This document shows, piece after piece, positions 12,801 to 54,419 of a stretch of 64,000 nucleotides of DNA. Both the position numbers and the translations under genes were made by a program. Position 1 is the first letter of the stretch, and each line of letters starts with the position of its first letter. Under the pieces are notes generated by a model. That model was not told where the DNA came from, did not search any database, and was given only the letters and a program-made list of their open reading frames with translations. The DNA comes from Rhynchobatus australiae (Eukaryota). Where the stretch lies: positions 87,203,441 to 87,267,440 of the forward strand of contig JAUZTB010000087.1 in the NCBI GenBank assembly GCA_034780895.1, in the 5' to 3' direction.

Positions 12801-14066
12801 ATCCACCAGCCCATTGATTTGAATGGGGATTGTAGGGGTGTACAGAGGACAAGTACATTCTTTTCAGTGATTATTTTGTTTTATTTTGAATGATTTTAAG
12901 GATTTTATTTTCAACACTTTTAAAAAGTGTCAGAATATCAGAAACTCTCAAACATTTAAAAACTTTGACAGCATTGGCACATGGCAAAGCTGTGGGCGGA
13001 GCATTGCTGTTTGTCAAAGTCTCACAGAGGGGTTTTGGGAGCAGGGTTTGTTCCGACCTACCTCCTACCCACATAACTCATTTACATTGTCTCACCATTT
13101 AACTTCAGAATCATCTAGTTGGGCATTCCAGATCTGGAGAAGGAAAATTCAGGGCAATTTTGGGTGTTGCTAGCAGGAAGCATGTCCTACCTTAGGAACT
13201 CAGGCCAATTATTCTCATTCCAGATGGCAAAAACTGGATGGCTCTAGAATGTTACCTGTCTGCAGTGAACTGGCCAGCACTCCTTTTCCTGGCAATGACT
13301 GCCAGTCTGCAAGGGTGTGGCAATTAGACTTTCACACAAATTGAAAACCAGACCCATTGGACCACACCTTTAATAAGTATGGAAGGAGTTGTTGGCGCCA
13401 GGGCCTCAACAGTTTCTGCAATAGTTGTTGGGAACTCCACCCTTAATCATCAGTCTTATCTTTTAAGTTTTTATTGCTGCTCCTTTATTATTATTTTCCT
13501 GTTCAACACTTCAAAATATAGGTATTAGGCTGCATGCAATTTTTGTTTCATTTTGACCCCAGTCGTGCTTTCTAGTTGCCCTCTCCTCTGTCCCACCACC
13601 AAATATCCTTCAATTGAGTGCAAGCTTTACAAGTGCCATGCAATAACCTTCCAGGAACTGAAGTCTACTAATCTGAGGCAGTTACAATTTTCTCTCACAC
13701 TTAAGTGCTGCAAGATTCTTTTAAGCCTCTGATTTTGTAACATTCAGCATTATCAAATTGATATGGAAATCAATCAAAACAAAATCATAAGGTTTTAAAT
13801 ACATCTAATCTGAAACGTAGTACCCAAATAATTTGTAAAAGGCAGTCTGACCAACCCACATCAAAGATAGCAGAGTGCAAGTTAACGCCAGCACTGACTG
13901 GCAGTTTAAACATTAACAATCCACTACAATAAAAAACATTCTCCCCGCCCCTTTTAATATTCCCATTCAAATTTATACTATCAATTTATAAACAGCATGA
14001 TTTAATACAATATTTCCAAATGATTCATTGAAGAAAAGAGTGATTAGACTGTTTTTTCTTACTCAC

Positions 14067-14274
14067 CGGTCTGATTAAGTCATCGCTATGATCAGCATTC
14101 TTTCATCAGTATTTCCTCATGGCACCACGCTGCTGCTGTTAGCTGGAAGTCCCCTCCATTACACTACTGCTTTTTTTTGGGAAAAAAAATCTTTTAAGCA
14201 AATCTTGTTACGGGATGCCACTTCTGTCAACCGCTGACACTTGAGCTCTTTAGAGAAAGTCGCTATTTCACCCC
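14067..14274 (-). other. Non-coding 5' leader exon (or 3' part of first exon), 208 nt, uORF-rich
   Basis: Acceptor actttctgtttctttttgttgaacAG at 14275 and strong donor CCG|GTGAGTAAG at 14066. Five AUGs, all closing within the exon. Confidence 0.75.
14075..14159 (-). other. Mini-uORF cassette: MEGTSS* (14139-14159), MRKY* (14106-14120), MKEC* (14092-14106), MLIIAMT* (14075-14098)
   Basis: Direct translation of the minus strand. MRKY*/MKEC* share a TGATG stop-start overlap. Confidence 0.6.
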
Positions 14275-14477
14275 CTGTTCAACAAAAAGAAACAGAAAGT
14301 ACATGAGCAGAAAAAAAAACTCAGACCACACATGTCGCTGCTGGTGTTTTAAAGAGTATTTCTTCTTCCTTTCACAAGAGAATACAATTTAACGTGCCGT
14401 TTAAAGCGCGTTACACTCGGTAGTCCAGGTCCGAGGCGCTTCAGGTGCCCACTTATTGTTGTGGCCAGTCGCAGTGA

Positions 14478-14513
14478 TCATGCTGCTTGTTGCCACATGA
14501 CTGTCTCACTCAT
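14478..14513 (-). CDS. Candidate conserved-peptide uORF MSETVMWQQAA* (PTP4A/PRL-type, inferred)
   Basis: ATG AGT GAG ACA GTC ATG TGG CAA CAA GCA GCA TGA. First AUG after the predicted TSS, with A at -3 (caaacATG). C-terminal motif shared with the uORF at 35204-35293. Confidence 0.65.
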   Translation of the reverse strand: MSETVMWQQAA

Positions 14514-14569
14514 GTTTGTTGGTGCTTGCGAGAGCCGGAGAGAAGCCGCTGGTAGCAGCGGAGGAGGGC

Positions 14570-14665
14570 TCCAGGCAGCTCAGAACATAGACGCGGCTGC
14601 TCTTATAGAGGAAGCGCCAAACCCCGCCGGCCAATGGCTGACTCTCACAATCACATGACCAACCC
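14570..14665 (-). promoter_or_regulatory. Proximal Pol II promoter
   Basis: TATAAGA at 14607-14601 (minus), GC box GGCGGGG 14622-14628, CCAAT 14631-14635, M/E-box GTCATGTGA 14651-14659. Local CpG enrichment 14390-14780. Predicted TSS ~14577. Confidence 0.75.
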
Positions 14666-15959
14666 CAGGACAAAAGTTTTGTATCGGGGCTAGGCTGGGG
14701 TTAGGAAGAGGGCATTCATTCAAAAAAAACAGCAGCAAAACAGGCAGAAAACGCCCGGGCTGTGCCTACAGACGCTTCGAGCAGGAAATATCCCTGCCTT
14801 ACACACAAGAGGACTGGCCTTCATCCAAATAAGGGAAACGTCTGGTGCTCTTTAAACGATCCCCCACACTGGGGAGTGTATCCTGAAGTGGGCCTACAAC
14901 TTCCAGTGCAGCCATTCTCCCTTTCCCCTCCCCCACTCCACATGAAAGACAACCTGGCAGAATTATTTAATATTATTGTGACAAAGACCTGGCGTGTTAA
15001 CTAACACTGAGAAGGATATACAGTGAAACTGACCGATTATCAAAACAAATGGATCTTGTGTTTTGAAACATTTAATGTATGAATGGTAGAACCCTCCTGC
15101 AACTGTTCCCCGATTGAGACCACAAATAAAAATGTACACCTTAATTTTATAGTTACCCCATAATAAAAAAGTTAGTCAAGTTTGTAAATATATAGTCACT
15201 GACAATTTTTAACAGTTGTGTTATCAGAGTCCACAATGCTTGCATTGACTAACAGATAATTTTAACCTAATTATGAATTTACTTAAAATATGGCTGATTG
15301 TCCCATGCCATCATTGTGTTACAGGCCACTAATCAACAAATCAGCAGGTATTTGAATATTTTACTGCAACACTACAAACTTTTCCACTCCTAAATACCAG
15401 AACAACACTAAGGCACCTGATCATTTCAAGCACGACAGTGATATTCAGATCCCATTAGCCTTAACTTATACCCACAGATAGATAGTTAATGAACCCACTG
15501 TTCTGTTACAAATATATTAAACCTTTGTGTTATTTAGCAGCTATATTGAAACTTACAGAGATTTTGCAAAAACACTGACTAAGAACTCAGCATATAACAT
15601 AAAAGTAAACACATTTGTGTAGATAAAGTTTCCTCAAATTAAACATTTATAAAGTACAATCAACAGACAAAATTCATTATGATGTTACTTTGCCTTCTAA
15701 ACAGAGTCCATTGATATAAGCAGGTGCTTTTTCCTACATGCTGTCCTGCTTTTACTTTATTCTCTTAGGATAGTTTTTGTCTGAGGACAGGAAGACAGGG
15801 AGTGGTGATGACTCACAGTCCTGCCTGAGTTCCAAAGGTTTTTTTGGGGGATGTGGAGTGTTGGACAGGATGAATTATTAATAATTTATTTCAAACACCA
15901 AGGACTATGATAATTAAAAAATGACACTTTACCACAAAGAGTCATCAAAGCCACTTCCA

Positions 15960-16145
15960 CGCAAAATGCTGCAGGGAAATAAACAGTCGACATTTCGGAT
16001 CGAGATTCTTCATCAGGACTGGAAAGGAAGAGGGCAGAAGCCGGAATAAGAAGGTTGGGGAAGGGGGAGGAACACATGCAGGCAGGTGATCGGTGAGAGT
16101 GGGAAGGTAGGAGGGTGAGAGGTAAGAAGCTGAGAGGAGATAGAT
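15960..16145 (+). repeat. Penelope-like element terminal fragment
   Basis: aaatgctg...aaacagtcgacatttcggatcgagattcttcatcaggactggaaaggaagagggcagaagccggaataagaagg, a common elasmobranch repeat end. Confidence 0.55.
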
Positions 16146-17099
16146 AGAAGCCATTTGCTGTTTTAATCCTAATGATGCCATGTACAAATGAAGTGATGAT
16201 CCATCATAATATCTATTTCTTTCATTAATTCTATTTTTCTTTCTTAATATGCATATAAAAACTTTTTTGTCAAACTCTCTTTTAAAAAATAATGAAACCA
16301 GAACCAGAGAAAATATCCTATGAGTTTACAAATCTGGCAGATACTGAATACAACAAACAAAATCTTTAAACACAACTGCTTATTAGTGTTAGTTCCAACT
16401 ATTCAAACAAAAGACAAATACACTATTTCTGGAATCAACATTGGTACGTACCAATCTAATTTAAATCCAGGTATCCATACGGTTTAAGCATAGCTTCCCT
16501 CATAGCTGCCTTTCCCCCCTACACTTGAGCACTGATGATCTGCTGAAGACATCACACTGCCACTGCAAACTTCAGATGGAGTTAAAAGGTTTACTATCAG
16601 AACAGGCGTAAACAAGAGGGGGCTGCTTCTGGGGGAGGGAGTAGGCAGAGCCTGAATCATGTGTGATGTGTCACTGAGGTTTTGAGGCAGATGGAGTGTT
16701 TTTCATGCAATAGAGTTTGTTTTGCTGTAGGCCAAATTAAGTAAAGATGTCAGAGTAGCATGAATCAGTCTAATTACTCCATATAGGGTTGTGCAGTATA
16801 TTACACTGCAGTTACCACGGAACTTGCTAACTAGACAGCCAGAATGGAACAAATCATGAGATTCACAATTACAACTTAAAAATATATGATCTCTATAGAA
16901 AATCAACTGTGCTAGAAAAGCCATGAATCGTTGTAGCCATTATGGTCAATATAGATTTATTTAAAATTAATTTATCATCACATCATGTGCTTGCTTACAA
17001 ACAAAAAAAATCTGTTAAATTCTTCCCCTTAAAGTGGTAAGTTAATAAGCAAATTATTCTGAAAAAGTTAAAGCAATGAAAAAATTATTTTCAATACAT

Positions 17100-17400
17100 T
17101 GGGACAGCTAGTAGAGCTGCTGCTTCGCAGACCCAGGTTCAATTCTGACCTCATGTGCTCTCTGTATGGAGTTTGCACATTCTCCCTTGTGACCATGTGG
17201 GTTTCCTCCAGGTGCTCCAGTTTCCTCCCACATCCCAAAGGCATACAGGTTTCTAGGTTAACTGGCCATTGTAAATTGACCGTAGTGTGCAAGTAAGTGG
17301 TAGAATCTGGGAAGAACTGTGGATAAGGATGTAGGAAGAATAAAATTAAGATTAATGTAGGATTAGTGAAAATGGGTGGACTGAAAAGAGTCTGTGTCTC
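17100..17400 (+). mobile_element. HE1/V-SINE-like SINE
   Basis: B-box-like ccaggttcaattc, then core ggagtttgcacattctccc...gggtttcctccaggtgctccagtttcctcccacatcccaaag. Confidence 0.85.
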
Positions 17401-19254
17401 TCTGTGATTTCATGGTAGCTTGAGCGTACCCCTCTCTTGATTACAGGTGGATAGTTAGGATCAAAGCTGTCTTTAGAGATAGTGAATATCAACAAGCCAT
17501 AGGGTACAAAGGGACCAGTCTTGGCCTCTTAATTTCTTTACATTTCCATACATATCCAATTTTGCAGAGAAGGCTGGATAGCAAATAAAACAGGAGCCCC
17601 AGGAAATTACCATTTTCTTATCCAACATGTCTAGCAGGAGTTAATATTTAAACTCCAACTCAATTCAGTTGACTTGTAACAGGTTGGGGATTGAACCTGG
17701 ATATTTCGATAACTTAGCACACCTTTGACCACCAACAGAATCAATCTCACATTAAAGATCACCAGTAGCCTATGTCCAGAGAACCCTTATGAGGAGAAAA
17801 ATGTAAACTGATAAATTATGAAATTAAAAACTCTTCACTGTTATTTATTTCTTGCAATGCCTTACATAATTTCCTAAGCTCACACATAGATTTAGCTGTT
17901 CAGGCAAGATGGCCTAAAAATTTCAATAAGCCATTTTGGTGAGACTTAAGAACATTTTATCTTTTTTTTAAGAAGAATCAGAAGACACTGCTTGTGGAAT
18001 TAAAATAGAAGAAATTTCCTCTTTGGTATAATATGTTAATTTGCATATTTGGTATCTTAACCTCAGAAATGTTCTTCCTTCATCAATGAATGCATGTAGG
18101 CTTCTGCAACACAGCTGTTTGTAGCAAGGCAAATTAAGGTGGTTTAATTACATATAGGGATGAATCCTTGTCACACATAATCACGTGTTTTGCAATAGTT
18201 TACTATAGTTCCAATATTTGATCTCCTACCCCTGTCCTCTGCAGAATACATCATCATATTATGTGCTTTCAATTTAGCTGTTTATAAAGTTTTATCAGCA
18301 CCTATGAGTACCCAAGATGGGTCATTTAAGAGAGTTCCATTTATCATAATTATAAACAAGACAGACTATCTTGATTGCTAATTGGGCTGTGAAATGTTCC
18401 AAAAATACTTACAGCACTGTTGTACACCATTAAAAAAGCCACCTTTCATGATTGATACCAAACATTATTGACAGGTTTTTCACCTGTGGATGAAAGTTGG
18501 GGCTGGTTTCAAATTAGAGGGGCAGGTTTGGTTCAGCATAATAAAAGATGATCCTATGTTGATATACACCAGCTGTGATCAGAAATGGGACTATAGATGA
18601 CTCCTCTGAATTAGTATAGAGACTTGTGTCAATATCCAAGTGAAATCACCAAACTTAACCCAAATCTCCAATTAAACTCACCATCTTTCAGGGCTGAATG
18701 GCTCTGAACCAAGTCAATGAGCACAGAGTTATGTATTGAGCTAATTCAACTCTGCTGATGCCAATTCCATTGATTCCAAGGTACTCATAAAAGAAACATT
18801 AGGCAGTGTTTTTGTGAAATTAAAACTCCCTTGGGTATTCATTGTTGCTGACCACTTAGGTACCAGAACAACTAAACTTATGCTTTGGTTCAATTGCCAG
18901 AGGCAACATAGTTAACATGAAACCTGACAGCTGATTACATAGATATGACAGGCATGATTTTAAAAATGGCAGGATTAAGCCCAGCAAATGAGAAGGTCTT
19001 TTGGAGATTGCAGATGTTCCCATTTAGCTATCCACATTTTATCACACAAGAGTATTTGGTTGAATTTGAATGGATATCTAGATGTATATACATACCCAGC
19101 AAGAGTGGGGTGAAGACAAAAAAAAATGTACTTGCCCAAACTGGCCAGTTGAATTTGACCTTTTTTACTTAGTCATCACAAAGTGATATTAATAGCACTG
19201 TGGAGACATCTGGAACTCCAGGCAGATGCGATGAAAGATTATTGAACTTAATTT

Positions 19255-19312
19255 CTGTTTCTCCCTTTACAGATGCTGACTGGCTGGCTGAGTATTTCCA
19301 ACATTTCCATTC
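19255..19312 (-). repeat. Penelope-like short repeat
   Basis: tctgtttctccctttacagatgctgactggctggctgagtatttccaacattt, reverse complement of the 2762 and 57841 copies. Confidence 0.55.
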
Positions 19313-22300
19313 TTATTAAGGACATAGTCAATCTTGCTACTGCATTAAACAGCTACCATAACCAACATAACATTACATCTCAAAGGCCTCGGTGAGCTTA
19401 GAGCAAGAAGCTTCCAAGGAAAAGTAGGCAAAAAGATATATTGGGCCAATAATCAAGTGACAAGCTAACATTATGCCAGCACCTTTCCTGAATATTTGGT
19501 TTAATTTAAAAATGAACAAAAAAAAGTACAGAGCAGGAACTGACCTGAAGTATCAAATGAAGAGAAATCAAACTATATTTTAAAAGATTGTGTTATAACA
19601 TAACTGTTCCTGATGAATTCATATTGGAAATGTTGTCCAAGTCTTTAAAAAGCTCCCAGTTTCTCTTTGGAAGATTTTTTGAAATGTAAAGTGGCTAGGA
19701 GCCATAAGCATCGAAAAAGAAATGTTAGGGAAAGCTTATACAGCAGAACGTACATCTCCAATTATTAAAATTGTTTAGACTTTATATTTTTTTTGAAACT
19801 GAGCTAAAGCTTTGTAAATTTTGCATTTGATACAATCAGATATAAAATTATAAAATTTCATTAATCCCCATTTTGTGGTCTTGTGTGCGTACGACTTCCT
19901 TTTCAGCTAAATTTGGTCCAACACATGATTAATCAGTAGTCTAAATTGATCTGAAAGTTCCATAAAATGGATATGATCCACTTGAGAATGAACTGAAGTT
20001 CTGACCACGTCTCACTGAACTGCTGATGAACTCCTTGAAGCTTATCACATGACTTCTTTAAGAAAAAGAGACAGTTTACCAAAAGTCTAAAATAGAATCC
20101 TTATGACAACTCCTGATCTGGCTTAATTGAGGGATATCCTGTCAGCGCATAGCATGAAATCTTATATGTTGTCCAGTGGTCACCTGATGACATCACTCAG
20201 TCCAAATGCTCACATGCAGGTTATGGGCCATCTGTTATGATTCGAAATCTCACAATAAGAATGAAACTGCAGAAGTAACAAATTCTCAAGTCCCTACTAC
20301 TAGGTTTTTTTAGTCAATACCATAGATTTTGGGCAATTGTCCAGGACCAGGTCACAGTATTTCCTCTAGGCTAAATAAGGTCATATCTACAGAGTGGGGA
20401 ATGTGCCACACCTTACCAGGACCCACATGGGTCCAACGCTAGTACTACCCAATGTTCATTGTTCCACAGACTTTAAACTTAGAAGCTTAATAGAGGAGAT
20501 AAAATACATTTCTGTTATTTATAGATGACATATCTTTAGTGAAAAACATTGCTACCACTTAAATTGTTTTTTTTTAACAGCAAGATTGAATGTGCTCTGA
20601 TTAAGAGCAGCTATTTTTAAAGATACCAAAAATAGCAGAAATAGTCACAATTCAAAATATTTACAAAGTGAAAATACCATTTTTTTTAACAGAACTTGAA
20701 TGACCCCAAATAAGTGATGGTAGTTTAGTGGAAGGGGGCCTTCCATTATATGGAAAATTTAAATAGAAATGTTATTCTGTCAAACAAGGAGTTTGCCTCC
20801 AAGAATACAGGCAAGCAGTATCTACAGTCCACATTAATGGATAGGCAGTCATGGAAAACCTGACTGACAACACATTCAGACATTACTCAAGACTTTTGGA
20901 TGTTTTAAGCTTCTGCGTTTAATACATTACTAACATTCTCTTCCGCTTTAGACAGCAAAATACAACATTGCTTGTTTTTGGTGTTGGGGGGGGGACTTTC
21001 TAAAAAAAAATTCCCTTGAGGCTGGGTTACCAATTTACTCAGACCAGTTTCAATTTCAATTAAAATATTTGTCAGATTGTGTGCATTTTCAGAGCAAGAC
21101 AGTTTCTGACATATCTTGTGATTGTGCAATGCTAGAAATGCTGTCTGAAAAAATGATGCTCACTGACTTTGGAAACAACTTAGTCAGATACTTTAACAGA
21201 GTAAGATAATCAACACATTTCATGGGTGTTTCTTTTCCTACAGAATTGTCCAGAAGGAGACAGGGGAACATAACTGAACCCTGGAAATTTAAGAAAAAGA
21301 AATAGCTTTGAATGTTTGGCTGCAGTCTTTCATCGGAAAATGGGAGCATGTTCTGATAATAGGTCAAACCCAAGCTAAAATATTGAACCATCTTTCACTT
21401 TCCAATGCAGATCAACATATTGCAGATCATGATTTCAACCTGGTGATCTGTAACCCAGAGCTTCACCTGAAGCTGCCCCATGGAACCTTTCGTAACAATA
21501 GCCTTCTTGTATCTTTTACACATTTTTAATTGCACAAATATTTGAGATGATTTCAACTGGGACTGATCAGCTTCTGGAATTCTGTCTTTTATTCTGGTTC
21601 TTGCTCCATGTTATTAAAGAGAGGTTTAACTCAGAATTCTCTGCACTTTTTTTTGGGGGGGGGTGGGGCATTCTCCCTGTTTGACCTCTGCAACTAATTG
21701 CTGACATATTTCCTGCCAAAGGGGAGATCTGAACAGCTCAGTTAGAATCACAAAAACCTGCAACACAGAAAGAGGCCATCAAGAGACTACCAAGCAAGTC
21801 CCACACCTCGGCATTTCCCCCGTACCCTGTGCTGGTTCTCTGCAACGACATGCTTAATGGCCTATTAAAACTTCCAATGGAATCCAATTTCACATTCTCG
21901 ATTCTTCCATTTGCTGGCAGCACTGCCAATCACATCTCACAAGTTATGAGATTCAGTTAGCACAAGATGACGAGTGCCAGCCATTATATTCCCAGTGACA
22001 AAATACCTCAACTTCAGTTCATACTTAAAATACATTCACACGTGAAACAGGTGGGAAGTGAATTGATAAAGCAGACAGTCTTGAGAGATGAGCAGCTGTT
22101 GGTGGGAGGTAAGGTACTGATTCTTGCAAGGCATAGCTTGTGTAATTTCTAAGTCATTTTGTTTTAAATACAAGGCCATTCAGGGATTTTGTATGCCCCT
22201 AGTCAACTTTACTTCTGTATATTTTTCAGGAAGAATCACAGCATTAAATTGCTCTAACCTTTTCAAGTTAAATAAAAATAATATTGCCTAGATAGAATTG

Positions 22301-25300
22301 GGCAAAGACACAGAATTTAAACTGCAGACTTCCTAGTTACAAAGCAAGTCGTGGGCTGTGTCTTTAAAAGGTGTCATGGGAAAGGCAGCTGCAAAAGTAC
22401 AATCTCCACCCACTGTCGCTCACCACACCAGCCCACGCAATGCAGCACACCCTGCATCCTGCAGGACACAACCCCTCTATTAGGTGATGGAAACTCAGGA
22501 TACAAGACCACAGTAGACCCCGAGAAGCCCCTGGCTAACTGAACACGCAACTATTCATTGACCCCTGCCTAGTTAGTCTCACTTCCCCCTGCGTATCCTG
22601 TGAGTGGGCTGGCAATATTTCTCAATGCTTTCCATACCACCACCAGAATGCAGCAGCCACCCTTATCCTGGAAATTACAAGTCTGATCTTTTAAACATTC
22701 CATTCTACTGCAATACCGACAGAACTTCCTGCTAATACACTCCCTTTTATGACAGGCCTTTCACTTCCAGCCACCAATTTCAGCTGTTAAACAACTCAGA
22801 ATAGGTCAATGTGATCACAATTTTAACTCTTGAGATGCCAATTATATGAAGAAGACCTGAAAAATTCTGAATGGCAAAACATATCAGTTTTCAGCAATAA
22901 CATGGATACTTTCGTTTTTTTTTTGTTGTTGGTATTAATCAAACTAGGAAAAGGATTATCTAAAAAAAAGAAAAGCAGTGGTAAAGCTCCACCCTGTCTT
23001 TCCAGATAAGGAGGACGAGATTTCTGATCTTTGTGACTCCAGTTGAAAAATGTTTGTGTGAGAGAGAGGTGCGTGTGCAACAGTGCACGTGTATTCATGA
23101 TTGTGTGTGTGAGAGAGAGACAGAGAGAGACAAGAGTGTGAAGGCTCCATTTCTCAGCTTTATTATGCATATTCAACATCTTGGATAACATATTTCCTGG
23201 TTTTAAAATGGCTAGTTCAGAGCTTTAACCAGTCAAATAGTTCTCATAGCATTTCTAGAACATGGAAGAGTCCCTCATGCCTGTGTTACAGTGCCCAGAA
23301 CTCTACATTGTACCCCTGGTGAGGTATGTTGAGGACACCATGCAGTTTCACTTAATACCTGGGGCTCTATATTATTCACTGAGTCCTCATTTGCTTTGAG
23401 ATTTTTTCAGGTGTAACATTCAGAAATCTACCTGTCATTGATGAATACTCAAAACACATTGATCTTTAATATCATGAGGAGAAATATGATATCTGGGATG
23501 CCATATCCTCATTATCATTTTGATATTGTTTTTGATATTGCGGAGTTAATAACTGGTAGTTTGCTTTCATTCTTTTTTTCTAAATCATCACAATCTCACG
23601 TTGGTTTTTCAAGAGATATAGCCAACGCAACTAGACAGACAGCTGAGAGCAGTGAAGCTTAAAAGACACAGTGAGAATACCATTCCAATATTGCCAAATC
23701 AATTGCAGCACCAAAGATATCATTATGCTATTTTTTTGCCATCAAGTTTTGTGTCAATAAGTCCTTTAATAAATCTTTCACTACTTTACTGTACAAAGCA
23801 CAATGAATTAATTATAGATCCAGGTCACTTCTGTTAAGCAATGGACTTGGGAGTGGAAGGTGTACAGTGAGGAAGCTTCTCTCTGATAGACTGCTTGGTA
23901 CATTCCATGAAATGACTATTGCGTCATGAATGTGGTTCTTACCCAATTCCTTCCTCTGCTATTTCAGTGGGTATTTAAAGTATGTTTAGCATCTCTCTGA
24001 AAGTAACAGAGCAGGCAGTGTCATGTACGATCACTATAACATTAGCAGCAGTTATTTTGGCCCAATAGCGAGTTTAGTAGGAATCATATTTCATTAATGC
24101 CAAAGGGATAATGATTTCTGTATGGCAGAGGGTTCATTTGGATGCAAGCTCATCTGAATCTGCCAGCTGGTTAATTTCTGATTGTTCCAAGTTTCTTTCC
24201 ATGTGAAATGTCTCAGTCTGAGAACCATATTCGGGTCTTTTGCTCCATATAAAATGACATCTGGTAGTCCAAGTGCCCGTCTATCCAAATACCACCACCA
24301 GGAGTTTAAGCAGTTGATATTAATTAAGAAATTAATGTTGAAAAAAAAGCTCCAAAAATTCCGATTGGAAAGTAATAATGCTCGTCTCCTCATGAGGTTA
24401 AGTTTGTAGGAGGATTTGGACGGTCTCTCTGACACCACCGGAACTGAAAGGAATAGAGCAGGCTGAATAGAGAACACTGTATATTCTCACTGAATGCAGT
24501 AGGAGAATGAGCAATGCCTTAAATGCGAGTATCATAATCTGTGACTTTCCTTGAACTGTAGGGTCCTCTTGAATACTTGTTTTTTTTTAAATGATTTAAA
24601 TTTACAGATGAACAGATGTCATTGTTCCTAAATTTATCCGAGTTACCCTCTGCTCCATATGTCAAGACACAATTTGGATCAATAATAAGGCTTAGAAATT
24701 ATGAAGTTAAAGCACTTCATTTTTTCAGACCAGTGCATTAGAAAGTTGACCTCTTCTGGAGTGGAACAAAGCTCGAATCACACACACCAGAAATATGACC
24801 CGGCACTTCCCTTCAAGATTCACTCTTGCTCATCTGACACCACTTTCACATTGGATATTACTCCAATGACATCAATCTCCATGTAACATTGATTTTGGAA
24901 TTCATATTGACCTGACTGTTATCAGCCAGTCCTGGTTAATTGGGCATTTCTTGTTCATTCATGTTTTCATAGTGCTATTCCAGTCTGAGGCTCCATATTT
25001 GGGAAAGTCCAAGTGGTATCTCTTCCTTCAGGTTCTCCCATGAAGATCCAACCCCTCCAACCACTGATTTCACCTCCTGACCCCTCCCCTCGCACCTCAC
25101 GATTGCCCTCAGCCTTTACCTCCCTGAACCCCAGGTCTAGGATCTCTATCCCTTATCCCTTGACTATTTCAGGACCCTCCAGTCAGTTCTGATGTACATC
25201 TGCCATGCCTGCATGGCACAATCATCCCCATCCCCAGGATTCATTCAGCTCCTCACACTCTGCCCATCTTGACTTCTGAACCTCAAGTCTGGTCCCAGAT

Positions 25301-26489
25301 GGTCCCATATTTCCTTTTACTCGCTGGGACTAAGGCAGGCCCATAATCAGATGAGTCATTGGTATCCTGCAAAATTACCCTACAGCCCAGCCTTTAGGGT
25401 GCACCACAAGTTCCTGACCAGTAAAATGTAAAATAGTCTGTCAAAATCACTTAATTGTGTATATATTTAGTGGATTAAATAATTAGATAAAAGGTGGAGT
25501 GAATGAATCCTGATTCTATAGGTCATGACATGTAGAGGAATATCATTAGGTTTAACTATGTGCTCTCACACATATGCTTCAGAGTCTTATTAAAAATTAC
25601 CAAATAAATTCCACAAACCTGTCTGGCAAGTTAAACATTACCACAGGCAGAGAAGAATTAAATGAGTGGAATTCCTAAACCTACAAACACAAGCTAAAGA
25701 ATAACTAAAAGGTCTTGGACAAAGGGAGCCCAGTCCTTTGTTTTTAGTCAATGGCTTGTGGAGATTCAACTGCTCTGGTGATGTCTATATTAGAGAGCCT
25801 TGTCCATACACAGTAATCAGTGTCAAGGCTGCCAATCTCCGGACTACCCAGGAAAAAGACCAATGAGCCTTTGTGTCTGAGCACACCAGTTCTTTCAGTG
25901 TGCCCAGTGTCCAGGTTATTACATCCTCATTGTCTACTGAATAATCCAATGAATCCTAAGAGGCACCCCGGCAGACCAATTGCTCCTCCTGGGGCTCAAA
26001 ATCAAATGTGGTACTCTCTCAGTGATCAAGATATCAGTCATTGACAGTTTAACCACTACTAGGTAAAACACCTGATTCCCCAAGAAGTATTTCATTCTTT
26101 CTATGGTCCTTTAAGAACTACGCTGGCATTTTACTTGCTATCTGGCAACTAATCCAGATTGGTTAATACCCTGAATGTCCTCGACTGACCGACTGATCTT
26201 GCATTTTGTTTATCAGATTGTTGCTTGCTGTACAGTCACTATGTTCAGTACAAGAGCACAAATGATTTGAAAAGACAGAATTAGCCTGGGTTCTGCAATA
26301 TGAACAGCAGAGGCTAAATTTGGTAGCCCCCAAAAATAGGTCCAGAGATTGCAATGTGTAATTAACCCATGCCTGTCAATCACACTCAGTCAATACACCA
26401 ACTTTTTTTTTTCTGTTCATCATGAGTACTGTGTGTATAGTGAAGACCTGGGAGATAGTGAAGGATGGATTAATATGGGAGAGTGTGGA

Positions 26490-27950
26490 ATCTGTTTTTT
26501 GAGGCTGCATTGAAGATCATGGTGGTGGAGGTAGAAAGTTACAGAGATATCCTGTGTACACAGCGGCCAAGAGAGGCATTCAGAGCCGATATAAAGGAGG
26601 TCATGCCAGACTGAAAGCCCGGGGACCTGGACGTGCAGCTGCAGAAAGTTCGACAACTTTACCTGAGTAGATAAGGTCAAATGCCATAACCAACTTATCT
26701 GCTGCAGCATTTCCTGCTCAAGGCATTGCATGTATCAGTCAACAACAAATTCATACACTGCATTCACTTGCATCTCTTCTTCACTACGCACTACTACAAC
26801 CTTTGCGCTGAATGCCTTTCATATACTACTAGGTATTCAACCACAAGCAGGCATGATACCCAAACACAAATATACTGACGCACTTCCTTCACTCTTGCAT
26901 AACCAGAAACAGCAGAGGATTCCCTTGTAGTTCAATCACAATAGGGTTGTTACCAGACTTTACTGAAACCCTGTTAAAGAAATCCATACCAAGTTGCCAT
27001 AGGGCTTTGAGAAGAGCTTGGAGCTCATTTATCCATCGAGATACTGCTTGACAACATCAGTGGCACAACCATGGATCCAACTGTGACATGGCACCTCACG
27101 ACTTCCACTGCAGCAAGTGGGTGCTGCCCAAGGGCTGCGTNNNNNNNNNNGCGTGCTGCCATGAACGCCTAGCCTGCTGATGAGCGAGGTCCTCTTGCAG
27201 CTTCACAAGCTAAACTCAGTCTGCTGGCATCACTTGCTGTGAACTTCAGAGCACGAACCGATTTTGAGACGCTGGAGCAGTTGGGCAACTTGTCCCAAAC
27301 AGGTTGTTGCTGAGCTGCCTCCTACGGCAGTGGCAGTAACTTAGTAGTGGTTGGAGATGCTGTCTGCTCTCAGGAATCCATCATCTGGCCCCTGTCACAT
27401 GCTCTCTGTGGACAGCTGCCGCCAAGCTGAGATGGTGCTGCACGCTGCCGGTCCTGGTGCCAGACCATCAGCAACTACCTCCACGAGGTGGGCAGCACCG
27501 AGCAGGACAGCAATAGCGAAAGGCACACAGACTCCAGGTGCAGAAACTGACTTTGCCATGCGTTGAAAACATTGTCCAGAGTCTTTAATGTTATAATGGC
27601 TTTTATTTTTGCATTGTGGCCAAGTAAATGCTGTGCTGATCAGATTTATTAGATGGACAGAGTATGAGACAGCTGGTGTTTGGGGAACTGAGTCACACGT
27701 TTAGATTGGTCCTTTGTGCAGCAAGGCAGAAGCTTTGGTTTGCCTTCCCTCTTCCGCTCTTGTTCTTCCTCCATCGTCTCCTCCTCATTGCCTGAGCTGG
27801 TTGCTATGGAGCTGCTGCAAGGGTTTCTCCTCAGGGTGGCAAGGTTGTGCAGCACGCAGCAACCAACTGTAATCATATCACCCACTTTGTCAACTGCTGC
27901 AAGGATCCTCCAGAGTGGTTAATTCTGGATGTAACCAGCCACCGGCCTGC
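26490..27950. mobile_element. Decayed PIF/Harbinger DNA transposon: Myb/SANT-like gene (+) and transposase C-terminus (-)
   Basis: Plus strand 26495-26670 reads FEAALKIMVVEVESYRDIL...TWTCSCRKFDNFT (Myb/SANT-like). Minus ORF 27649-27885 reads ITVGCCVLHNLA...EEETMEEEQE (HARBI1-like ACCxLHN motif plus acidic tail). Confidence 0.7.
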
Positions 27951-28989
27951 ATATAGTTGACACTCCCTTTAAATGTGCTGGTAGCTTGGGGGAGTCAGGA
28001 GTAAAGTGGTTTCCTCCAACTCCATAACATGTGCCCTACTGTGCAAGGTAAGTGATATCATTGGCAAGAGTACCAAGTTCTATAATTGTGCTCAAATCAG
28101 GATAGCATGCTGATTGATATTGTGACCTGCCTTCCTACAACTGCTTCTGATGGAGATTAGAGAGCATCTGGAGTGATTTGATGCAAAAGCATTAATGCCT
28201 GCACTGACACCCCACTTTGGTCCACACTTGCAGCACCCAAACAATGATATTATTCATCCCAGATAATGCATCTTCAGAACTTACATGGCAGATCACTTTG
28301 ATGCAGGCAGGAGAAATTTGACAAGCTAAAAATGGCCTTATCAAAAAGAACCTGGTCTCCATTATAGATGGGCTGCCTGGTGGCTAAAATTCATTAGATC
28401 AATATGGGATTAAGATGCATTTCTAGCACAGAAAGTATGACCAATTGCAGCAGTAAATTGGGACCTCTGACATAGTTTTACTGTCCTAAATAGTTTTTTG
28501 TAAACTGAATTTTTCCTACTTTATTAGAGTAATTAATAATTCATTTTAATATACATTGAGGAATTCAATTCCAACATTTTGCACAGAAACTTTACCGTGT
28601 TACCTGAAAGCTAAAGTGAGTGCAACCCTGAATTTATCCATCAAATTCCACATAATGTTTTCCAAAATTGACAAATTACCACCTGCCACAGGCAGTGTGT
28701 GGGAGCGGGGGAGGGGGAGGATAATATATTCAGGTTTAATCACTATCTGCTAGCAGAATTTGGAAGGCATTCATTCTCTTGGTGCTAAAGAAGTGGGAAG
28801 CTCAAATCGATGCAAGCTGTACAATGCAGAAAAGTCCCAGCTTGAATCTCGAATTCATGCTCAGTTGGGTGATCATGTTTAAAATCCTGATGGGGCTCTG
28901 GCAGCTGAACAACACTCCTGACCGAGGAAGACGGTGAAACAAAGGGTCAAGCAGACTTCCGGCCTGCCCTCCATCATTATCCTATGGCA

Positions 28990-29535
28990 TCTGTTGGTAA
29001 TTGGTTTATTACTGTCACATGTACTGAGGTACAGTGAAAAACTTTGTTTTGCATGCCATCCATACAGATCATTTCATCACAACAGTGCATTGAAACAGTA
29101 CATGGGAAAACAATAACAGAATGCAGAACAAAGTGTTACAGGTACAGAGAAAATGCAGTGCAGGCAGACAATAAGGTGCAAGGCCATAATGAGTTAGACT
29201 GTGAGGTCAGAGTCCATCTTATCGTACTAGGGGACTTGTTCTATAGTCNNNNNNNNNNNNNNNNNNNNNNNNNNNNNNNNNNNNNNNNNNNNNNNNNNNN
29301 NNNNNNNNNNNNNNNNNNNNNNNNNNNNNNNNNNNNNNNNNNNNNNNNNNNNNNNNNNNNNNNNNNNNNNNNNNNNNNNNNNNNNNNNNNNNNNNNNNNN
29401 NNNNNNNNNNNNNNNNNNNNNNNNNNNNNNNNNNNNNNNNNNNNNNNNNNNNNNNNNNNNNNNNNNTACAGTTACAGAGAAAGTGCAGTGCAGGCAGACG
29501 ATAAGGTGCAAAGCCATGACCAGGTAGATTGGAAG
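28990..29535 (-). mobile_element. Rex1/Babar LINE 3' end (gap inside)
   Basis: Reverse complement of the 3' tails at 44830-45030 and 52590-52820 (ggtttattactgtcacatgtactgaggtacagtgaaaa). Confidence 0.75.
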
Positions 29536-29904
29536 GGTGCATGCAAGACCAGGATCCCTTTGCACCACAAAACATTGCAGGCAGGGTTGGGTCTGGCTAT
29601 GCTGCTCCCTCATGACTACAGATTTCAGCCCAACTTCTGCTGCCTGATCCTGCATTCAAAGAATGGACACCTGGATAAGTTGCCTGAGCATTTCCACACC
29701 AATGGAACTGTTTATCAACAGTAAGCAAGAGAGAGGACATAAACAGTGGCCAGGAAGAGGTGGGAAGGTTGGAAACAAAGAACTTTCGCAGACCATCATT
29801 GGAAGACCTGTATCCACAGTTCTGGGGGTGGGGGTGTGTGGAATAAAAGAATGGAGAGTGTCTCAGGAAGGTGACTAGCGTTATTAGTGTTTTTTGTTGA
29901 GATG

Positions 29905-30890
29905 TCACCTAAAACCAGGCCAACGGGGCAGAGAATTCCAAAGATTCACCATCCTCTGTGTGGAGAAATTTCTCCTCATCTGGCTCCAAAATGGCCTTCT
30001 CCTTATTCTGAGACAATGACTCCTGGTTTCAGATACATCAGCCAAAGGAAGCATCCTCCTTGCAGCCATCCTGTTCTGTCCTGTAAGAACTTTGTAAGTT
30101 TCAATGAGGTCTTTTCTCATTCTTCTTAAGACCAGAGAATGCAGTCCCAGCCTACAAAATCTCATATATAGCAAACCTGCCATTCCTAGAACTAATCTAG
30201 TAAATCTCCACTGCACTTCCTCCAAGGCAAATGCATTCTTTTATGGGTATGACTGAGGCCCTTTAGAACTACTGGAAGACATCTTTACTCCTGCACTCAA
30301 ATCTTCTTGTAAGGCCAACATGCTATTTGCTGTCCTAATCACTTGATGCACCTGCACGTTGGTTTTTAGTGACCTGTGCAGAAGAATATCAAGGAGCTTT
30401 AGGATATCAACATTTCCCAATCTCTCTTCAATTTTTTTCCACATTGTATCATCCCCCATGTTCTTGCCCACTCACTCACCTTGTCAATATCTTGAAGCCT
30501 CTTTACATTCTCCTTCCCACTCACAATCCCACCTAGTTTCATATGGTCAATGAACTTAAAGGAATGACAATTGGTCCTGTCGGCCAAATTGTTGATGTAG
30601 ATTGTGAACAGCTGGGGCCAAGCACTGATCCCTGGGGTTCCCTACTAGTTACAGCCTGATAAACTGAGAAGGATCCATTTATTCACACTCTTTGTTTTCT
30701 GTCTGATAATTAATTCTCAATTCATGTCAGTGGAGTGCCCTCAACTCCATGTGTTGTAACATTGTTGGCCAACCTCTCACGTACGACCTTATCAGAGGCC
30801 TTCTGCAAATCAAAATACACTGGTTCTCCTTATCTATTCTACAATTCACATCCACTGGATTAGTCAAATATGATTTTCCTTTCATAATTT
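29905..30890 (-). mobile_element. CR1 LINE fragment
   Basis: ORF 29905-30225 EEVQWRFTRLVLGM...TRSHCLRI...FSTQRMVNLWNSLP. Confidence 0.88.
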
Positions 30891-31384
30891 ATAATTTGTA
30901 GATCATAATTTGCAGCCAACATTGCCTGCTCCAGAATTCTATTGTGCATGTGGCCAAGGGTGACATGAGCAACAGAACAGGCTGTGCATGTTTAATGTGC
31001 TTAGAGACCTTTCCTCAATTTGCTTCACTTTTGCAGCATGAGAGAAGGAAACAGGCAGATCACAGCTTGTGGTTTGGTGGGGTGGGGTTGAGAGAGGCCC
31101 AGGAAGTGGTCTATGAAGCATTAGTAAGGGAGGTTGGGAAAAGATGGGACCTGAAAGATTTGGCCAGGAAATCAGGGGGGTGTGATTGGCTGCAGGTATG
31201 GTTGCTCCACAGTCAGGTTGGGATGGTTGTTTGAGTTCAGGATATGGTGTTGAGATTCAGGGTCAGGATCAGATCTGGGTACAATACTGGGCAGCCTGAT
31301 GGAGAGCCATAGTAAGGCAGCTCCCTACACCTGCTCCCAAGCTGCCAACATCTGCTGGGGCATGCTCAAGCAGGTCCCCTTTAA

Positions 31385-32205
31385 CATAAAACATAGAATA
31401 CAGGAGCAGGCCCTTCAGCCCACCATGGTGCCAATGTAAACTATTCCCATCTGCTTGCACATAGTCCATATCCCTCTAATCCCTGCTTGTTCATGTGTCT
31501 ATCTAAATGCCTCTTCAACATCTCTATTGTATCTGCTTCAATTACCACCACCCCCCATGTGTAAAAATAAACATGTAAACACTAGAGGGCATAGGTTTAT
31601 GGTGAGAGAGGGAAGGTTTAATGGAGATGTGCTCCAATTATCTACCCTATTTATGCCTCTCAAAATCTTTATATACTTCTGTCAGGTTTTCCCTCAGCCT
31701 CTGATGCTCTAGACAAAGCAATCCAAGTTCGTCCAACCTCTCCTTTTCACTAATACACTCCAATCCAGGCAACATTCTGATAAACCTCTTCTACACCCTG
31801 TCCAGGGCCTTCACATTCTTCTGATAGTCTGGTGAGCAAAATTAGACACAATACTCCAAATGTAGCCAAACCAAAAAGTTTTATACAGCTGCAGCACAAC
31901 TTCCCAACTTTTATACTCAATGCAAAAAACAAACTGCTGGAGGAACTCAGCAGCTCAAGCAGCACATGTGAGGGAGAAAGGAATTGTCACGTTTCAGGTT
32001 GAGACGATTTGTTTTTGCTCCAGGTTCCAGAATCTGCAGCCCCTTGTGTCTCCATTTTATACTCAATACCCAGACCAATGAAGGCAAGCATGTTATATGC
32101 CTTCTTTACCACCTTATCCACTTGTGTTGCCACTTGCAGGGAGCTATGGGTTTGAACCCCAAGATCCCTCTGTACATCAATGCTCCTAAGAGTCCTGCCA
32201 TTTAC
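31385..32205 (-). mobile_element. CR1 LINE 3' fragment with nested insertion and small internal inversion
   Basis: ORF 31987-32307 VQRDLGVQTHSSLQVATQVDKVVKKAYNMLAFI. Tail aacatagaatacaggagcaggcccttcagccc. Confidence 0.88.
31922..32054. mobile_element. 133-bp Penelope-like palindromic insertion with 13-bp flanking direct repeat
   Basis: TTTTATACTCAAT at 31909-31921 and 32055-32067. Internal inverted ends gcaaaaaacaaa / tttgtttttgc. Confidence 0.75.
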
Positions 32206-32596
32206 TTCAGAAAAGCGGGGAAGAATACTAGAAAAAGAACTCATTGCTTTGCTGGATAACAGGTTGAGAAAGAGACCATTTTTAAAGTTTCCAACAGAGA
32301 TAATCATTGCATAGACTTACAGAGGAACTTCCAACACACATTCTTTATTCGCTCTGGTTGCTGGCAAGTTTGGCTGTAGACCAATAGTTTTAGTCAGCTA
32401 CTGGTCTGTCTTGTGATGCTGCAGCATTATTTTAAGCTCCACGTTGCACGTATTACCCACATGCAGAATTGTTTTCATTTAGTCTCAACTGCACTAAATT
32501 TGGTGGGATAACATAGGGGGGCATGGGGTTTTTACAAGTTGTCCCACAGCAAATGTCCTTTTATCCCACATCTCTTCCTGCTGTACTTCATGTACT

Positions 32597-32610
32597 CCTC
32601 TAGGGGGCAC
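32597..32610 (+). promoter_or_regulatory. CTCF-like motif
   Basis: CCTCTAGGGGGCAC resembles consensus CCASYAGRKGGCRS. Confidence 0.4.
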
Positions 32611-33099
32611 TATTATGAAGCTCCATTACCTTGAATAACTTCATTAAAACTGAGCCTCTGCTGACATTTACAGTTCACTGTCCTCCCCTCCTGTCTCTGA
32701 AGTCTACAGTTTATCCCGTGTGATCATATTGACTTTTAAGTATGCTGCTGAAATATTACCTGTACAACAGGTCCATTAGCAGACACCTAGTCCACAATGC
32801 TGTTTTCAACTTTAGTTAGCACCGCAGACCACAGAGAATTGTTTTTATTTGTTGCTGGTCTACGCTTCTTGACTGATTTAATTTGTATGACACAGTTACA
32901 AGTAAACAACTCATCGACTGGTGATTCTCAACCAAGCAATGACATCAGTTCTAAGCCCAATGGTAGGAAATCAGGAAGTACTAAAGGTACTTCTTTCCTT
33001 AAGCAATTGGTCAGCATTGTTTCATGAATTTGAGAAACATTTTCAGTATATTTCTTAGCTGAATCCCAGCTCCTGAAGGTGTTCCGCACCATCCGTAGT

Positions 33100-33410
33100 C
33101 AGAGTAACACAGCATGGTTATTAGGCCCCTTGGCCCACTGAGTCCACACCAGCCTTTAAACACCCATTGCATTAATCCCTTTTTTTAAAAATTCTCTTTG
33201 CATTCCCATCAGTTGCTACCAGATTCCACCACTCATCTGCACACCAGGGACAACTAAACAACCTAGCTGCATGTCCTTGAGGTGTGGGAGGAAACTGGAG
33301 CACCCAGGGGAAAACCTATGCAGTCACAGGGAGAATGTGCAAACTCCACACAGAGTCCCTGGAGAACAGGATTGAACCCATGCCACCTACTAGCTGCGCC
33401 ATTGTGCTAC
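33100..33410 (-). mobile_element. HE1/V-SINE-like SINE
   Basis: gtgggaggaaactggagcacccagggg...cacagggagaatgtgcaaactccacacag (reverse core). Confidence 0.82.
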
Positions 33411-34239
33411 CTCAGCTGTGCCGTTGTGCTGCCCGTCCAACAATACACGATGAATTTACATCAGCTGATGACGCCGGCAAGAGCATTCACATCCCTTCCC
33501 TTGTTATACTATCACATATGTCGTGAACTTTGTTCAAATGGCCATTCTTAAATGGTGATCCCCAGATGGCAACGCGACCCAAGATTTTCATTGCTGATCC
33601 CACTTGGTCCTAAGCTGGCTTCTAGCCAGAACATCAGCAAGACCCAGGGAAGCACGGAGCCTCTCTCAACACAAGCTGCACTGACAAACGTGGTACTGAG
33701 AGCAGCAAGGACCTGCCCCCTCCCTGGTACACCAGCTGTTAGAATTAAGTGTTTGTGACTGTCTTTTAATTTTTATGTTCAAAATCACTCAGCACCAAAG
33801 GTTTAATGTAAAACATTAAAATTATTTTTAAAAGTTATGTTAAAAGATTTAGAAACACATACACTTAAAACTTTTAAAATATTTTAATTATATCAAATAA
33901 AACTCATGCCTTTCTCCCGACAGCCAATTTTTCTTAAGGATTTCGATGGGCCTACAGTACTTGTGCAGATTAACTTGGTGCATGTTCAGCAGCTGAGAGC
34001 TGGGAATTTTGCGGAATCTTGCACTGCTCTACTGGACTCTTGCTTGGGAATTACCCAGTTATGGGCTTGTCTGGAAGCAGCCACAAAACACAGGGTCATT
34101 TGCTCCATTATATTATTTCTAATATCAATTTTGACAAATAACAACAGAGTATTAGAGACCCAGGGGAGTCCAGGATCCCAGGGTTGATTGACCACAATGC
34201 AGCAATATTATTAATAAGCATAGTAGGCAGGTTCATGGT

Positions 34240-34590
34240 ACATTGGTTCATGGCCAGAAGGTTCAAGCTCTACTCTGGGTATTTGTACATAAAATCTTCA
34301 ATGCATATTGATTTGAAACTGTATCATTGGAGCTATTAATCTTCCTTGACTGGATTTAAAAGTCTATCAAGATGCTGGATGCAGAGGAGTTCTCCTTGTT
34401 ATCCTGTGCAATATCTACCTAAAACAGGATTAGCTAGTCATTATTACATTGTTGTTTGTAGCACCTTGCTGTACTCGAATAGGCTAGAGAAATCCTGCAT
34501 TATCACAATGATTACCTAATTAGCAATAAAGTGTTCCGGAATGATCTGTAGTCATGAACAATGTCACATAAATGTATGGCTTTCTTTGCC
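34240..34590 (+). mobile_element. Ancient Deu-domain SINE (SacSINE1/AmnSINE1-like)
   Basis: ggagttctcc...tcctg.caatat...aaaacag.atta.ctagtcattat.acattg.tgtttgt...ttgctgt matches my recollection of the Deu core. 3' end ataaatgtatggctttcttt. Confidence 0.65.
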
Positions 34591-35091
34591 ATTTTAAAAC
34601 ATGAATTTGAAATACACCTATGAATGCAATGCAGAAAAATCATCTACACCTCCTAAGGCATAATCACTATTTTGAACTAGTTCCAAAGATTTCCTGCTGG
34701 TGTAGTTAAAGGTGAACAAATTACACTATTGCAGTCAGATCAAACACTTCTATAAAGAGGCATTCCACATTAATTTCACCCCAAACACATTTTCAATAAA
34801 ATTATTTTACCATTAACACGAGGCTCACCATCTACACATGCGCTGTCATCAAGTTCTACAATATAGATCATTAGTTTGCTGTCACAACATCCAGAAAGGC
34901 ACATCAGTCTTTACACTGACACTTTGAGACAATATTAAACAATAAGTGAATTTAATTATTGAAAAAGGCTCACTTCAAACAATACCAAGCGAACATACAT
35001 AAGAAGCACTGAGTTGTACAAGTGAACAGCAAATTCCAGGAGTAATACAACTTAAATTTCAAAAAATCATTGCTGATCTCCCCACTCCTAC

Positions 35092-35480
35092 CTGCAACCT
35101 CCAGTGTCTTCAGTATAAGTCCTGCATGCGATAAGCCAACATCATATGATCACCTGACTAATGCTCAAAAAATCAGCTGACTTCCCTTGCAAGCTTGCTT
35201 CAGCTAAACAGCTTGTTTCCATAGCACTCTGTCATGTGAGCTGTGACAGCACCAGCTGTCATTTCTAATGAAGAAACTGGGCCCCATACTCATTCTCTTT
35301 TCTTCTTTCTCAGCCTCACTATGGATTAACGTACTTCCCAAGGAAAGTCACAGTCTAAAACACACAAGAAATCTCTTCTCACATTTTCACACTGTTCCTA
35401 CGAAAGCAAACTTAGCAACATCTTTCTCAGTGTGTAAGAACTCTTGTGTGTGAAAGAGAGTGTGTGTGAGTGAGAAAAAA
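35092..35480 (-). other. Candidate distal alternative first (5'UTR) exon; 5' boundary approximate
   Basis: Donor CAG|GTAGGA at 35091. Unique sequence with a CT/CA-rich start region, upstream CACCC and CATTCC motifs, and a uORF carrying the shared W-x-Q-A motif. Confidence 0.55.
35204..35293 (-). CDS. Candidate conserved-peptide uORF MSMGPSFFIRNDSWCCHSSHDRVLWKQAV*
   Basis: Open 29-codon frame from agaATGagt to TAG. Last 7 aa VLWKQAV align with VMWQQAA of the proximal uORF, with stops in register. Confidence 0.55.
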   Translation of the reverse strand: MSMGPSFFIRNDSWCCHSSHDRVLWKQAV

Positions 35481-54078: not shown

Positions 54079-54419
54079 GGATGACGCTGAAAATAACTTG
54101 TACACAATGTACTTGGTGAAAAAAGCTGCTCAACTGCGAATGTTGTTTACTAAACGGTTGCATAGTTTGACCAGTGCCATTTTCATACTCTGGAGCTTCC
54201 TATTCCACTCCTTGGCTGCCCCTTCATCTTCCACTTCTGTAAGTTACAACTCATCAAACAGTTCAAAGTCTGTGTCCCATCTTGTACTCTCCATGTTGAC
54301 CATCACCCCTGTACTCAGTGACTTTCACCAGATTCCCATTCAGTAACATTTCAAATTTTACTTTAATATCCTTATACTTAATTCCCTTCCAGGCCCTGGC
54401 CTTTCTTGCCTCTTACCTC

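Follow-up and report, generated by a model that had tools for sequence, protein, structure and literature searches.

The genomic stretch considered here, a 64-kb window of the Rhynchobatus australiae genome (87203441-87267440 on a 117.6-Mb contig, C87), carries on its minus strand two short open reading frames (ORFs), copies 1 and 2, whose peptides end almost alike, and it raises the question of which transcript these ORFs belong to and whether selection has kept the peptide itself. An earlier note placed them as upstream ORFs (uORFs) in two alternative first exons, possibly of a PTP4A gene, each promoter carrying its own translational sensor, perhaps Mg2+-responsive. The observation is real and better supported than first reported, and was wrongly assigned to PTP4A: the locus is almost certainly the host transcript of the microRNA (miRNA) cluster miR-221/222, orthologous to MIR222HG, and a third copy of the motif lies farther upstream. 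It is likely that every predicted 5' end of this host RNA, supposedly non-coding, retains a small control element that is translated. Positions numbered below 1 or above 64000 are relative to the window and lie beyond it, and L-numbers denote stretches outside it.

Rfam detects two mir-221-family hairpins on the strand of the ORFs, 7.0 and 8.9 kb to the left of the window (Table 1), out of three found in the whole genome, and the proximal start lies 21.6 kb from the hairpin. Past the hairpins come conserved neighbours: FAM69/DIPK-type kinase exons (Pfam PIP49_C), taken to be DIPK2B, and JmjC exons taken to be KDM6A, in keeping with the human gene order. The spliced path was traced with contigs from 4 of 14 listed sequencing runs aligned to 13800-14900, whose status as RNA is a guess. 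Contig X1 (organism A) covers 14560-14414, skips an intron, resumes at 14273-14067 and ends in 67 letters that did not align there and match a single genome site, exactly exon 3; X1 leaves exon 2 at the donor 14067. Exon 2 is covered by all three contigs guessed to be RNA (entirely by X1, partially by X5, unspliced by X8), and both X1 and X5 break at its donor, X5 (organism B) departing at 14065 into sequence with no match here, which may be another or a more diverged exon 3. The path through exons 1, 2 and 3 leads toward the hairpins and stops 5.5 kb short of them, the hairpins lying outside this contig from one relative. Donors 14067 and 35092 and acceptor 14274, on which the first exon layout was drawn, are all found in the window sequence, but proximal exon 1 ends at a donor of its own, 14415, and does not reach 14067, because the relative's contig shows this donor and a 140-nt intron.

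The arrangement resembles human MIR222HG, where the proximal and distal starts lie 23,140 and 104,431 nt from pre-miR-222 (PMC5737680), three spliced transcripts begin 25-100 kb upstream (PMC4561498) and an intron of 132 bp occurs in one isoform (PMC5852960). The likeness extends to a start 21-24 kb ahead of the hairpins, an intron near the start (140 vs 132 nt) and 5' ends up to 100 kb away. By eye, the human RACE sequence (rapid amplification of cDNA ends; PMC7566567 supplement) matches the 14586 start, a 10-mer at 14441, two blocks of exon 2 and its donor; the comparison was confined to this RACE sequence. The use of several 5' ends, in keeping with the earlier note, is known for the human miR-221/222 locus (PMC4561498, PMC5737680).

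Translation confirms both window peptides on the minus strand at the positions first given, and in neither is any base masked as repeat (0 bases), the DNA being unique at both; they are the only V[ML]WxQA[AV]-stop frames in the window. When 208,753 pairs of ATG ORFs sharing a strand in the unmasked part of the window were scored with BLOSUM62 over 7 residues, this pair came first, at 27 vs 25 for each of two runners-up, and a pattern derived from the two copies matches the whole genome (2.2 Gb searched) exactly at copies 1 and 2, about 3 matches being expected by chance and a reversed control giving 1. This window pair alone is not far beyond chance, and the case for the motif rests on copy 3. 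It emerged from a held-out scan in which the final 7 residues of 7,396 ATG ORFs (414 kb) were scored against the peptides of copies 1 and 2: copy 3, in unique DNA 179 kb upstream of copy 2, scored 24.5 and the next-best ORF 17.5. The chance expectation for such a score is 0.02 among ATG ORFs outside the window and, with no AUG demanded, 0.12 in 550 kb and 0.2 in 1.01 Mb. Its strand, shared with the others, an acid at -9, and a good acceptor and donor are features outside the score by which it was selected. The three-copy motif reads [ED]-x-V-[MLI]-W-[QK]-[QR]-A-[AVL]-stop; the shared peptide end is longer than claimed, spanning 9 residues, with E or D at -9 in 3 of 3 copies compared with a background of 6% and with 1 of the 27 other pattern matches examined (of 31). 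Against a profile built from themselves the three copies score 33-35, values inflated by self-matching, and the next of 35,549 stop-ended frames (614 kb) scores 22.7; a fourth copy was not found in a further 200 kb upstream on C87, where the best score is 20.7. Restricting a 10-codon pattern to TAA and TAG stops gives 7 matches genome-wide, and among these copies 2 and 3 alone combine an in-frame AUG with a good donor.

Table 1. Short ORFs, exons and associated features of the miR-221/222 host locus (minus sign, minus strand)
Feature	Coordinates	Strand	Description
Copy 1	14478..14513	-	11-aa ORF, MSETVMWQQAA-stop; AUG with A at -3; inside proximal exon 1
Copy 2	35204..35293	-	29-aa ORF, translation MSMGPSFFIRNDSWCCHSSHDRVLWKQAV-stop; C-terminal end DRVLWKQAV-stop
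Copy 3	214415-214489 (L037:489-415)	-	24-aa AUG-led ORF, MNFTTFSIPLNANVVEHVIWKRAL-stop; C-terminal end EHVIWKRAL-stop
Proximal exon 1	14415..14586	-	Joint in contig X1; 5' end inferred near 14586, resembling by eye the human RACE 5' end
Intron 1	14275..14414	-	140 nt, GT..AG; joint in contig X1
Exon 2 (shared)	14067..14274	-	Several tiny AUG ORFs; splices to exon 3
Exon 3	L002:8515-8449 (outside window)	-	67 nt, AG..GT-bounded; 5.5 kb ahead of first hairpin
Promoter-like elements (predicted)	14601..14660	-	TATA-like TATAAGA (14607-14601), GC box, CCAAT box, E-box
Spliced 60-aa ORF	14159..14481	-	Start codon overlaps copy 1's stop
Candidate distal exon (first or internal)	35092..35442	-	Donor CAG/GTAGGA, 112 nt past the stop of copy 2
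mir-221-family hairpin	L002:2999-2919	-	Rfam
mir-221-family hairpin	L002:1054-971	-	Rfam

The predicted promoter elements ahead of copy 1 adjoin the window's only CpG-rich patch. Around the distal ORF no TATA, GC-box or YY1 match was found, the CpG observed/expected ratio is 0.17 and the candidate acceptors (35354 and 35442) reach only the top 9-12% of AGs, so that its description as lying in a promoter-adjacent first exon is not borne out; its donor is in the top 1.4% of GTs, and the candidate exon, with clear promoter marks absent, may be first or internal. On either side of copy 3 lie a donor at 214337 (top 3.7% of GTs) and an acceptor at 214576 (top 1.2% of AGs). These ranks come from a crude score, under which the RNA-supported proximal donor stands only at 40% and 18% of random sites have a comparable donor within 120 nt. 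Across the copies the stop lies 63-112 nt ahead of a donor. About 16 kb beyond copy 3 an isolated CpG-rich spot on the minus strand (230700-230950, L038), to which no coding gene is assigned, contains motifs of YY1-like, E-box and CRE-like type together with a strong donor (230853); it may be a far promoter, in which case the exon of copy 3 would be internal. A 19-codon ORF (214561-214490, minus strand) precedes copy 3 in the same frame, with one TGA and four codons between them. Rfam gave no match over the 240 kb upstream or at 9 pattern loci.

The pattern of differences among the copies suggests that selection has probably acted on the peptide. Over ten codons in three copies, third positions account for 18 of the 37 pairwise base differences, the paired codons are synonymous in 10 of 30 cases, and all three stop codons differ (TGA, TAG, TAA); when the same number of changes is placed at random, frame, stop and score are preserved in 0.02-0.1% of trials. 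Nucleotide likeness between the exons is marginal, being reached by 14, 17 and 50 of 300 shuffles. The earlier note had suggested selection on the peptide and its stop position: the likeness does look peptide-level and stop-anchored and recurs in the held-out third copy; the pair on which that suggestion stood is weak by itself. The copies could instead owe their likeness to chance and to DNA motifs (E-box or RFX-like, at promoters or enhancers) that mimic codons without any peptide selection, an account we regard as rather improbable though it has points to commend it: the weakness of the window pair, a genome-wide pattern count close to expectation (34 observed vs 26.5 expected), the absence of the ORF from the human RACE sequence, and the fit of an RFX-like consensus to copy 2 at 12/14 and to copy 1 at 10/14. 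The same consensus fits copy 3 at only 8/14, and conservation of a DNA motif would leave strand, frame, AUG and stop free to vary; the two shifted same-strand frames score 2-17 vs 22-27 in the true frame, with one reverse frame at 15-25.

Repeats supply a further source of look-alike peptides. A common retroelement tail reads (V-I)-W-K-Q-A-L, with 43 copies in 1.01 Mb, and several of the genome-wide pattern matches and near-miss frames are copies of it, so that copies 2 and 3 might be decayed tails that gained their stop by mutation of TGG or CGG. We consider this very unlikely: the profile of the 43-copy tail matches 6 of 28 pattern loci and none of the three motif copies (6 of 31 tested stretches in all), and the flanks of the copies hold no repeat remnant, the closest repeat being more than 1.3 kb off.

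Several observations weigh against a selected peptide in each 5' route of the host RNA and must be set beside these results. Without the third copy, copies 1 and 2 make a weak case and are only modestly unusual. The tail of observed scores exceeds that of the model 2-3 times, in part owing to the common W-K-Q-A-L repeat, and there is some circularity in the codon-position evidence, since peptide score was what singled out the copies. The sole spliced contig across the exon 2 acceptor derives from the proximal exon. Among the changes listed for relatives A and F, a single one falls in copy 1, Q9K, which is non-synonymous; counted on listed changes, 17 differences not being among them, its rate does not differ significantly from that of the flanks (1 of 36 nt vs 9 of 111 flanking nt, p 0.45). 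At 11 aa, copy 1 falls below the 20-30 aa usual for regulatory nascent peptides, although a 6-aa case exists (PMC7038982). The single third hairpin of the family (C127:64605812-64605895, plus strand, L057:812-895), which lies among F8-like, BRCC3-like and MAO-like exons, is a retained paralogue of the cluster, and no motif ORF was found in 200 kb at its locus (best 15.5 of 3,590).

The authors of the human RACE study judged MIR222HG non-coding from PhyloCSF and ribosome profiling (Ribo-seq), and in their paper the spliced RNA is mainly monosome-bound and partly cytoplasmic, with a RACE-mapped 3' end at about 1.3 kb (PMC7566567). Read by eye, the first 200 nt of the RACE sequence contain AUG ORFs of 27, 16, 4 and 5 codons, none with the motif. 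The same sequence, by eye, holds a look-alike frame with no AUG of its own, R-V-I-W-N-K-D-V-L-stop, from which an in-frame stop separates the AUG, and which serves as a lead only. The frame of the spliced 60-aa ORF in our exons agrees with this human frame, by eye, at A-P-R.

Exons 1-3 yielded no main ORF, their longest ORF being one of 60 aa, which leaves the label 'uORF' unproven. Among the changes listed for this 60-aa ORF, 4 of 8 are synonymous in A (p 0.14) and 6 of 10 in F (p 0.03), a post hoc comparison; the listed indel is 3 nt in both A and F, and organism C has two 1-nt losses close to the ORF end. A main ORF could lie farther on if the transcript continued, with the hairpins intronic, into the DIPK2B-like gene, and the short ORFs would then be true conserved-peptide uORFs of that protein. 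Exon 3 does end in a good donor, and the first coding exon of that gene (-56139 to -56326, minus strand, L007) lies on the same strand 55 kb on, with an acceptor, ranked in the top 1.2% of AGs, standing 187 nt ahead of the AUG, from which it follows that upstream non-coding exons may exist there. We nevertheless think this continuation unlikely, since the junction is seen in no contig, the leader would contain more than 9 AUGs, and the human spliced RNA has its own mapped 3' end. Pfam gave no match over the cut-off in 150 of the 313 minus-strand open frames of at least 60 aa in the 164 kb downstream.

Returning to a peptide kept within the host RNA, we would propose the following mechanism, every functional step of which is conditional. 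The distal and far exons would each join exon 2, giving alternative 5' routes; the copies would stem from an old exon duplication, and selection on the peptide would have maintained them. While translating the spliced host RNA, a ribosome would pause at termination with the motif in its exit tunnel. Under any of the promoters, the pause would tune decay of the spliced RNA or the accessibility of the ORFs that follow. The output of mature miRNA would change only indirectly, because the hairpins are cut in the nucleus. The conserved, stop-fixed C-terminal end, combined with free length and N-terminal end (11, 24 and 29 aa), therefore favours a brake acting in cis. As a whole, the idea that a nascent peptide anchored at the stop acts in cis to decide what becomes of the spliced host RNA is a tentative proposal, somewhat short of even confidence. 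The stronger formulation, a triplicated ribosome-arrest peptide with one copy per alternative 5' exon over 200 kb, acting as a uORF-type sensor without a main ORF and coupling translation state to host transcript fate, is speculative and would probably not hold in full.

Known precedents offer a partial guide. A conserved C-terminal end fits arrest peptides that act at termination (PMC7038982), and exit-tunnel cases at termination include the fungal arginine attenuator peptide, hCMV (human cytomegalovirus) gp48 uORF2 and the uORFs of AMD1 (PMC7038982, PMC9648851). The copies resemble such sequence-dependent uORFs (fungal arginine attenuator peptide, hCMV gp48/UL4 uORF2, AMD1 MAGDIS) in being short ORFs in a 5' exon with constraint anchored at the stop, but they lack a terminal diproline, occur as three dispersed copies in one locus, have no main ORF found and are known here from sequence. 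The end of the motif may be loosely like that of the fungal arginine attenuator peptide.

The copies are also like miRNA-encoded peptides (miPEPs; miPEP133, miPEP155 and plant miPEP171b/165a) in that a short ORF sits upstream of the hairpins within 5' exons of the miRNA host, and such an ORF in the 5' region of the primary transcript is present for copy 1 by contig X1 and would hold by extension for copies 2 and 3. A small peptide acting in trans, in which two amphipathic C-terminal turns bind a partner and each 5' route yields a version, would be backed by motif statistics identical to those behind the cis reading, and miPEPs from primary-transcript 5' regions are known in plants, and a few in human (PMC13686912). 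A stable 11-mer would nonetheless be unlikely, the N-termini have nothing in common and no protein family was found with the distal frame, so we give a trans-acting peptide little weight. We know of no miPEP that recurs across alternative 5' exons, and the literature searched contained no report of a miPEP for miR-221/222. By sequence features the ORFs would work like a conserved-peptide uORF or a miPEP and are candidate members of either class. Already known are the multiple starts at miR-221/222 and the existence of peptides from primary miRNA transcripts (PMC13686912).

Database and literature searches were negative within their scope. With the 32-aa distal frame, phmmer returned 7 matches, all to its N-terminal part and none over the motif (3 of the 7 were inspected and are repetitive), and an Atlas search gave no usable match for the peptide. 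A metagenome scan for exon 2 of other vertebrates yielded no orthologous stretch among the 80 of 99 examined. A MIR222HG row is missing from a human Ribo-seq ORF catalogue (PMC10032668, 6 files), and MIR222HG is missing from the 9 of 16 files covered of a catalogue of conserved small ORFs (PMC4568590); the human exon table (PMC4561498) gave no match, though it may use other coordinates or the needed rows may lie outside it. Neither a peptide from MIR222HG nor the present motif turned up in the literature searched, with subscription journals mostly outside its scope.

The original assignment to PTP4A fails for this locus, and the chance that the ORFs belong to a PTP4A/PRL leader with Mg2+-sensing uORFs is practically nil. 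The PTP4A N-terminus pattern matches only contigs C2, C68 and C135 and none on C87, and the phosphatase motif is missing from the 150 kb downstream of the window. Mg2+ sensing has no basis at the C87 locus, where the downstream unit is the miR-221/222 cluster and not PTP4A. PRL-1/2 leaders do carry a conserved Mg2+-sensitive uORF (PMC10083557), and the likeness is confined to the general idea of a conserved leader ORF, since contigs and peptide differ. The PTP4A leaders of this genome have, by eye, an ORF of 21 codons (MEFLKGS…ADK) that is common to two paralogues and has no W-x-Q-A end. It sits a few hundred nt before the PTP4A start (L019, L020), a third paralogue apparently keeping its 3' part, and is a candidate conserved-peptide uORF in its own right.

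Upstream of the host transcript, at 287-456 kb (L116, L120, L133), lie genes for a CCDC80-like DUF4174 protein, a nucleotide-sugar transporter and a member of the reduced-folate-carrier family. The window contains 11 N gaps and broken reverse-transcriptase fragments of long interspersed nuclear element (LINE) type, at 37426-38241 (minus strand), 54300-56391 (plus) and 61970-62608 (minus).

miR-221/222 is a much-studied cluster linked to growth and cancer, whose host RNA has been treated as non-coding. Should the motif prove to be chance, a useful annotation of the host-gene exons in a distant vertebrate would remain. The three diverged copies within one locus serve as a ready-made alignment pointing to the residues worth mutating, and whether short ORFs in animal miRNA hosts act through their peptide, in cis or in trans, thereby becomes testable.

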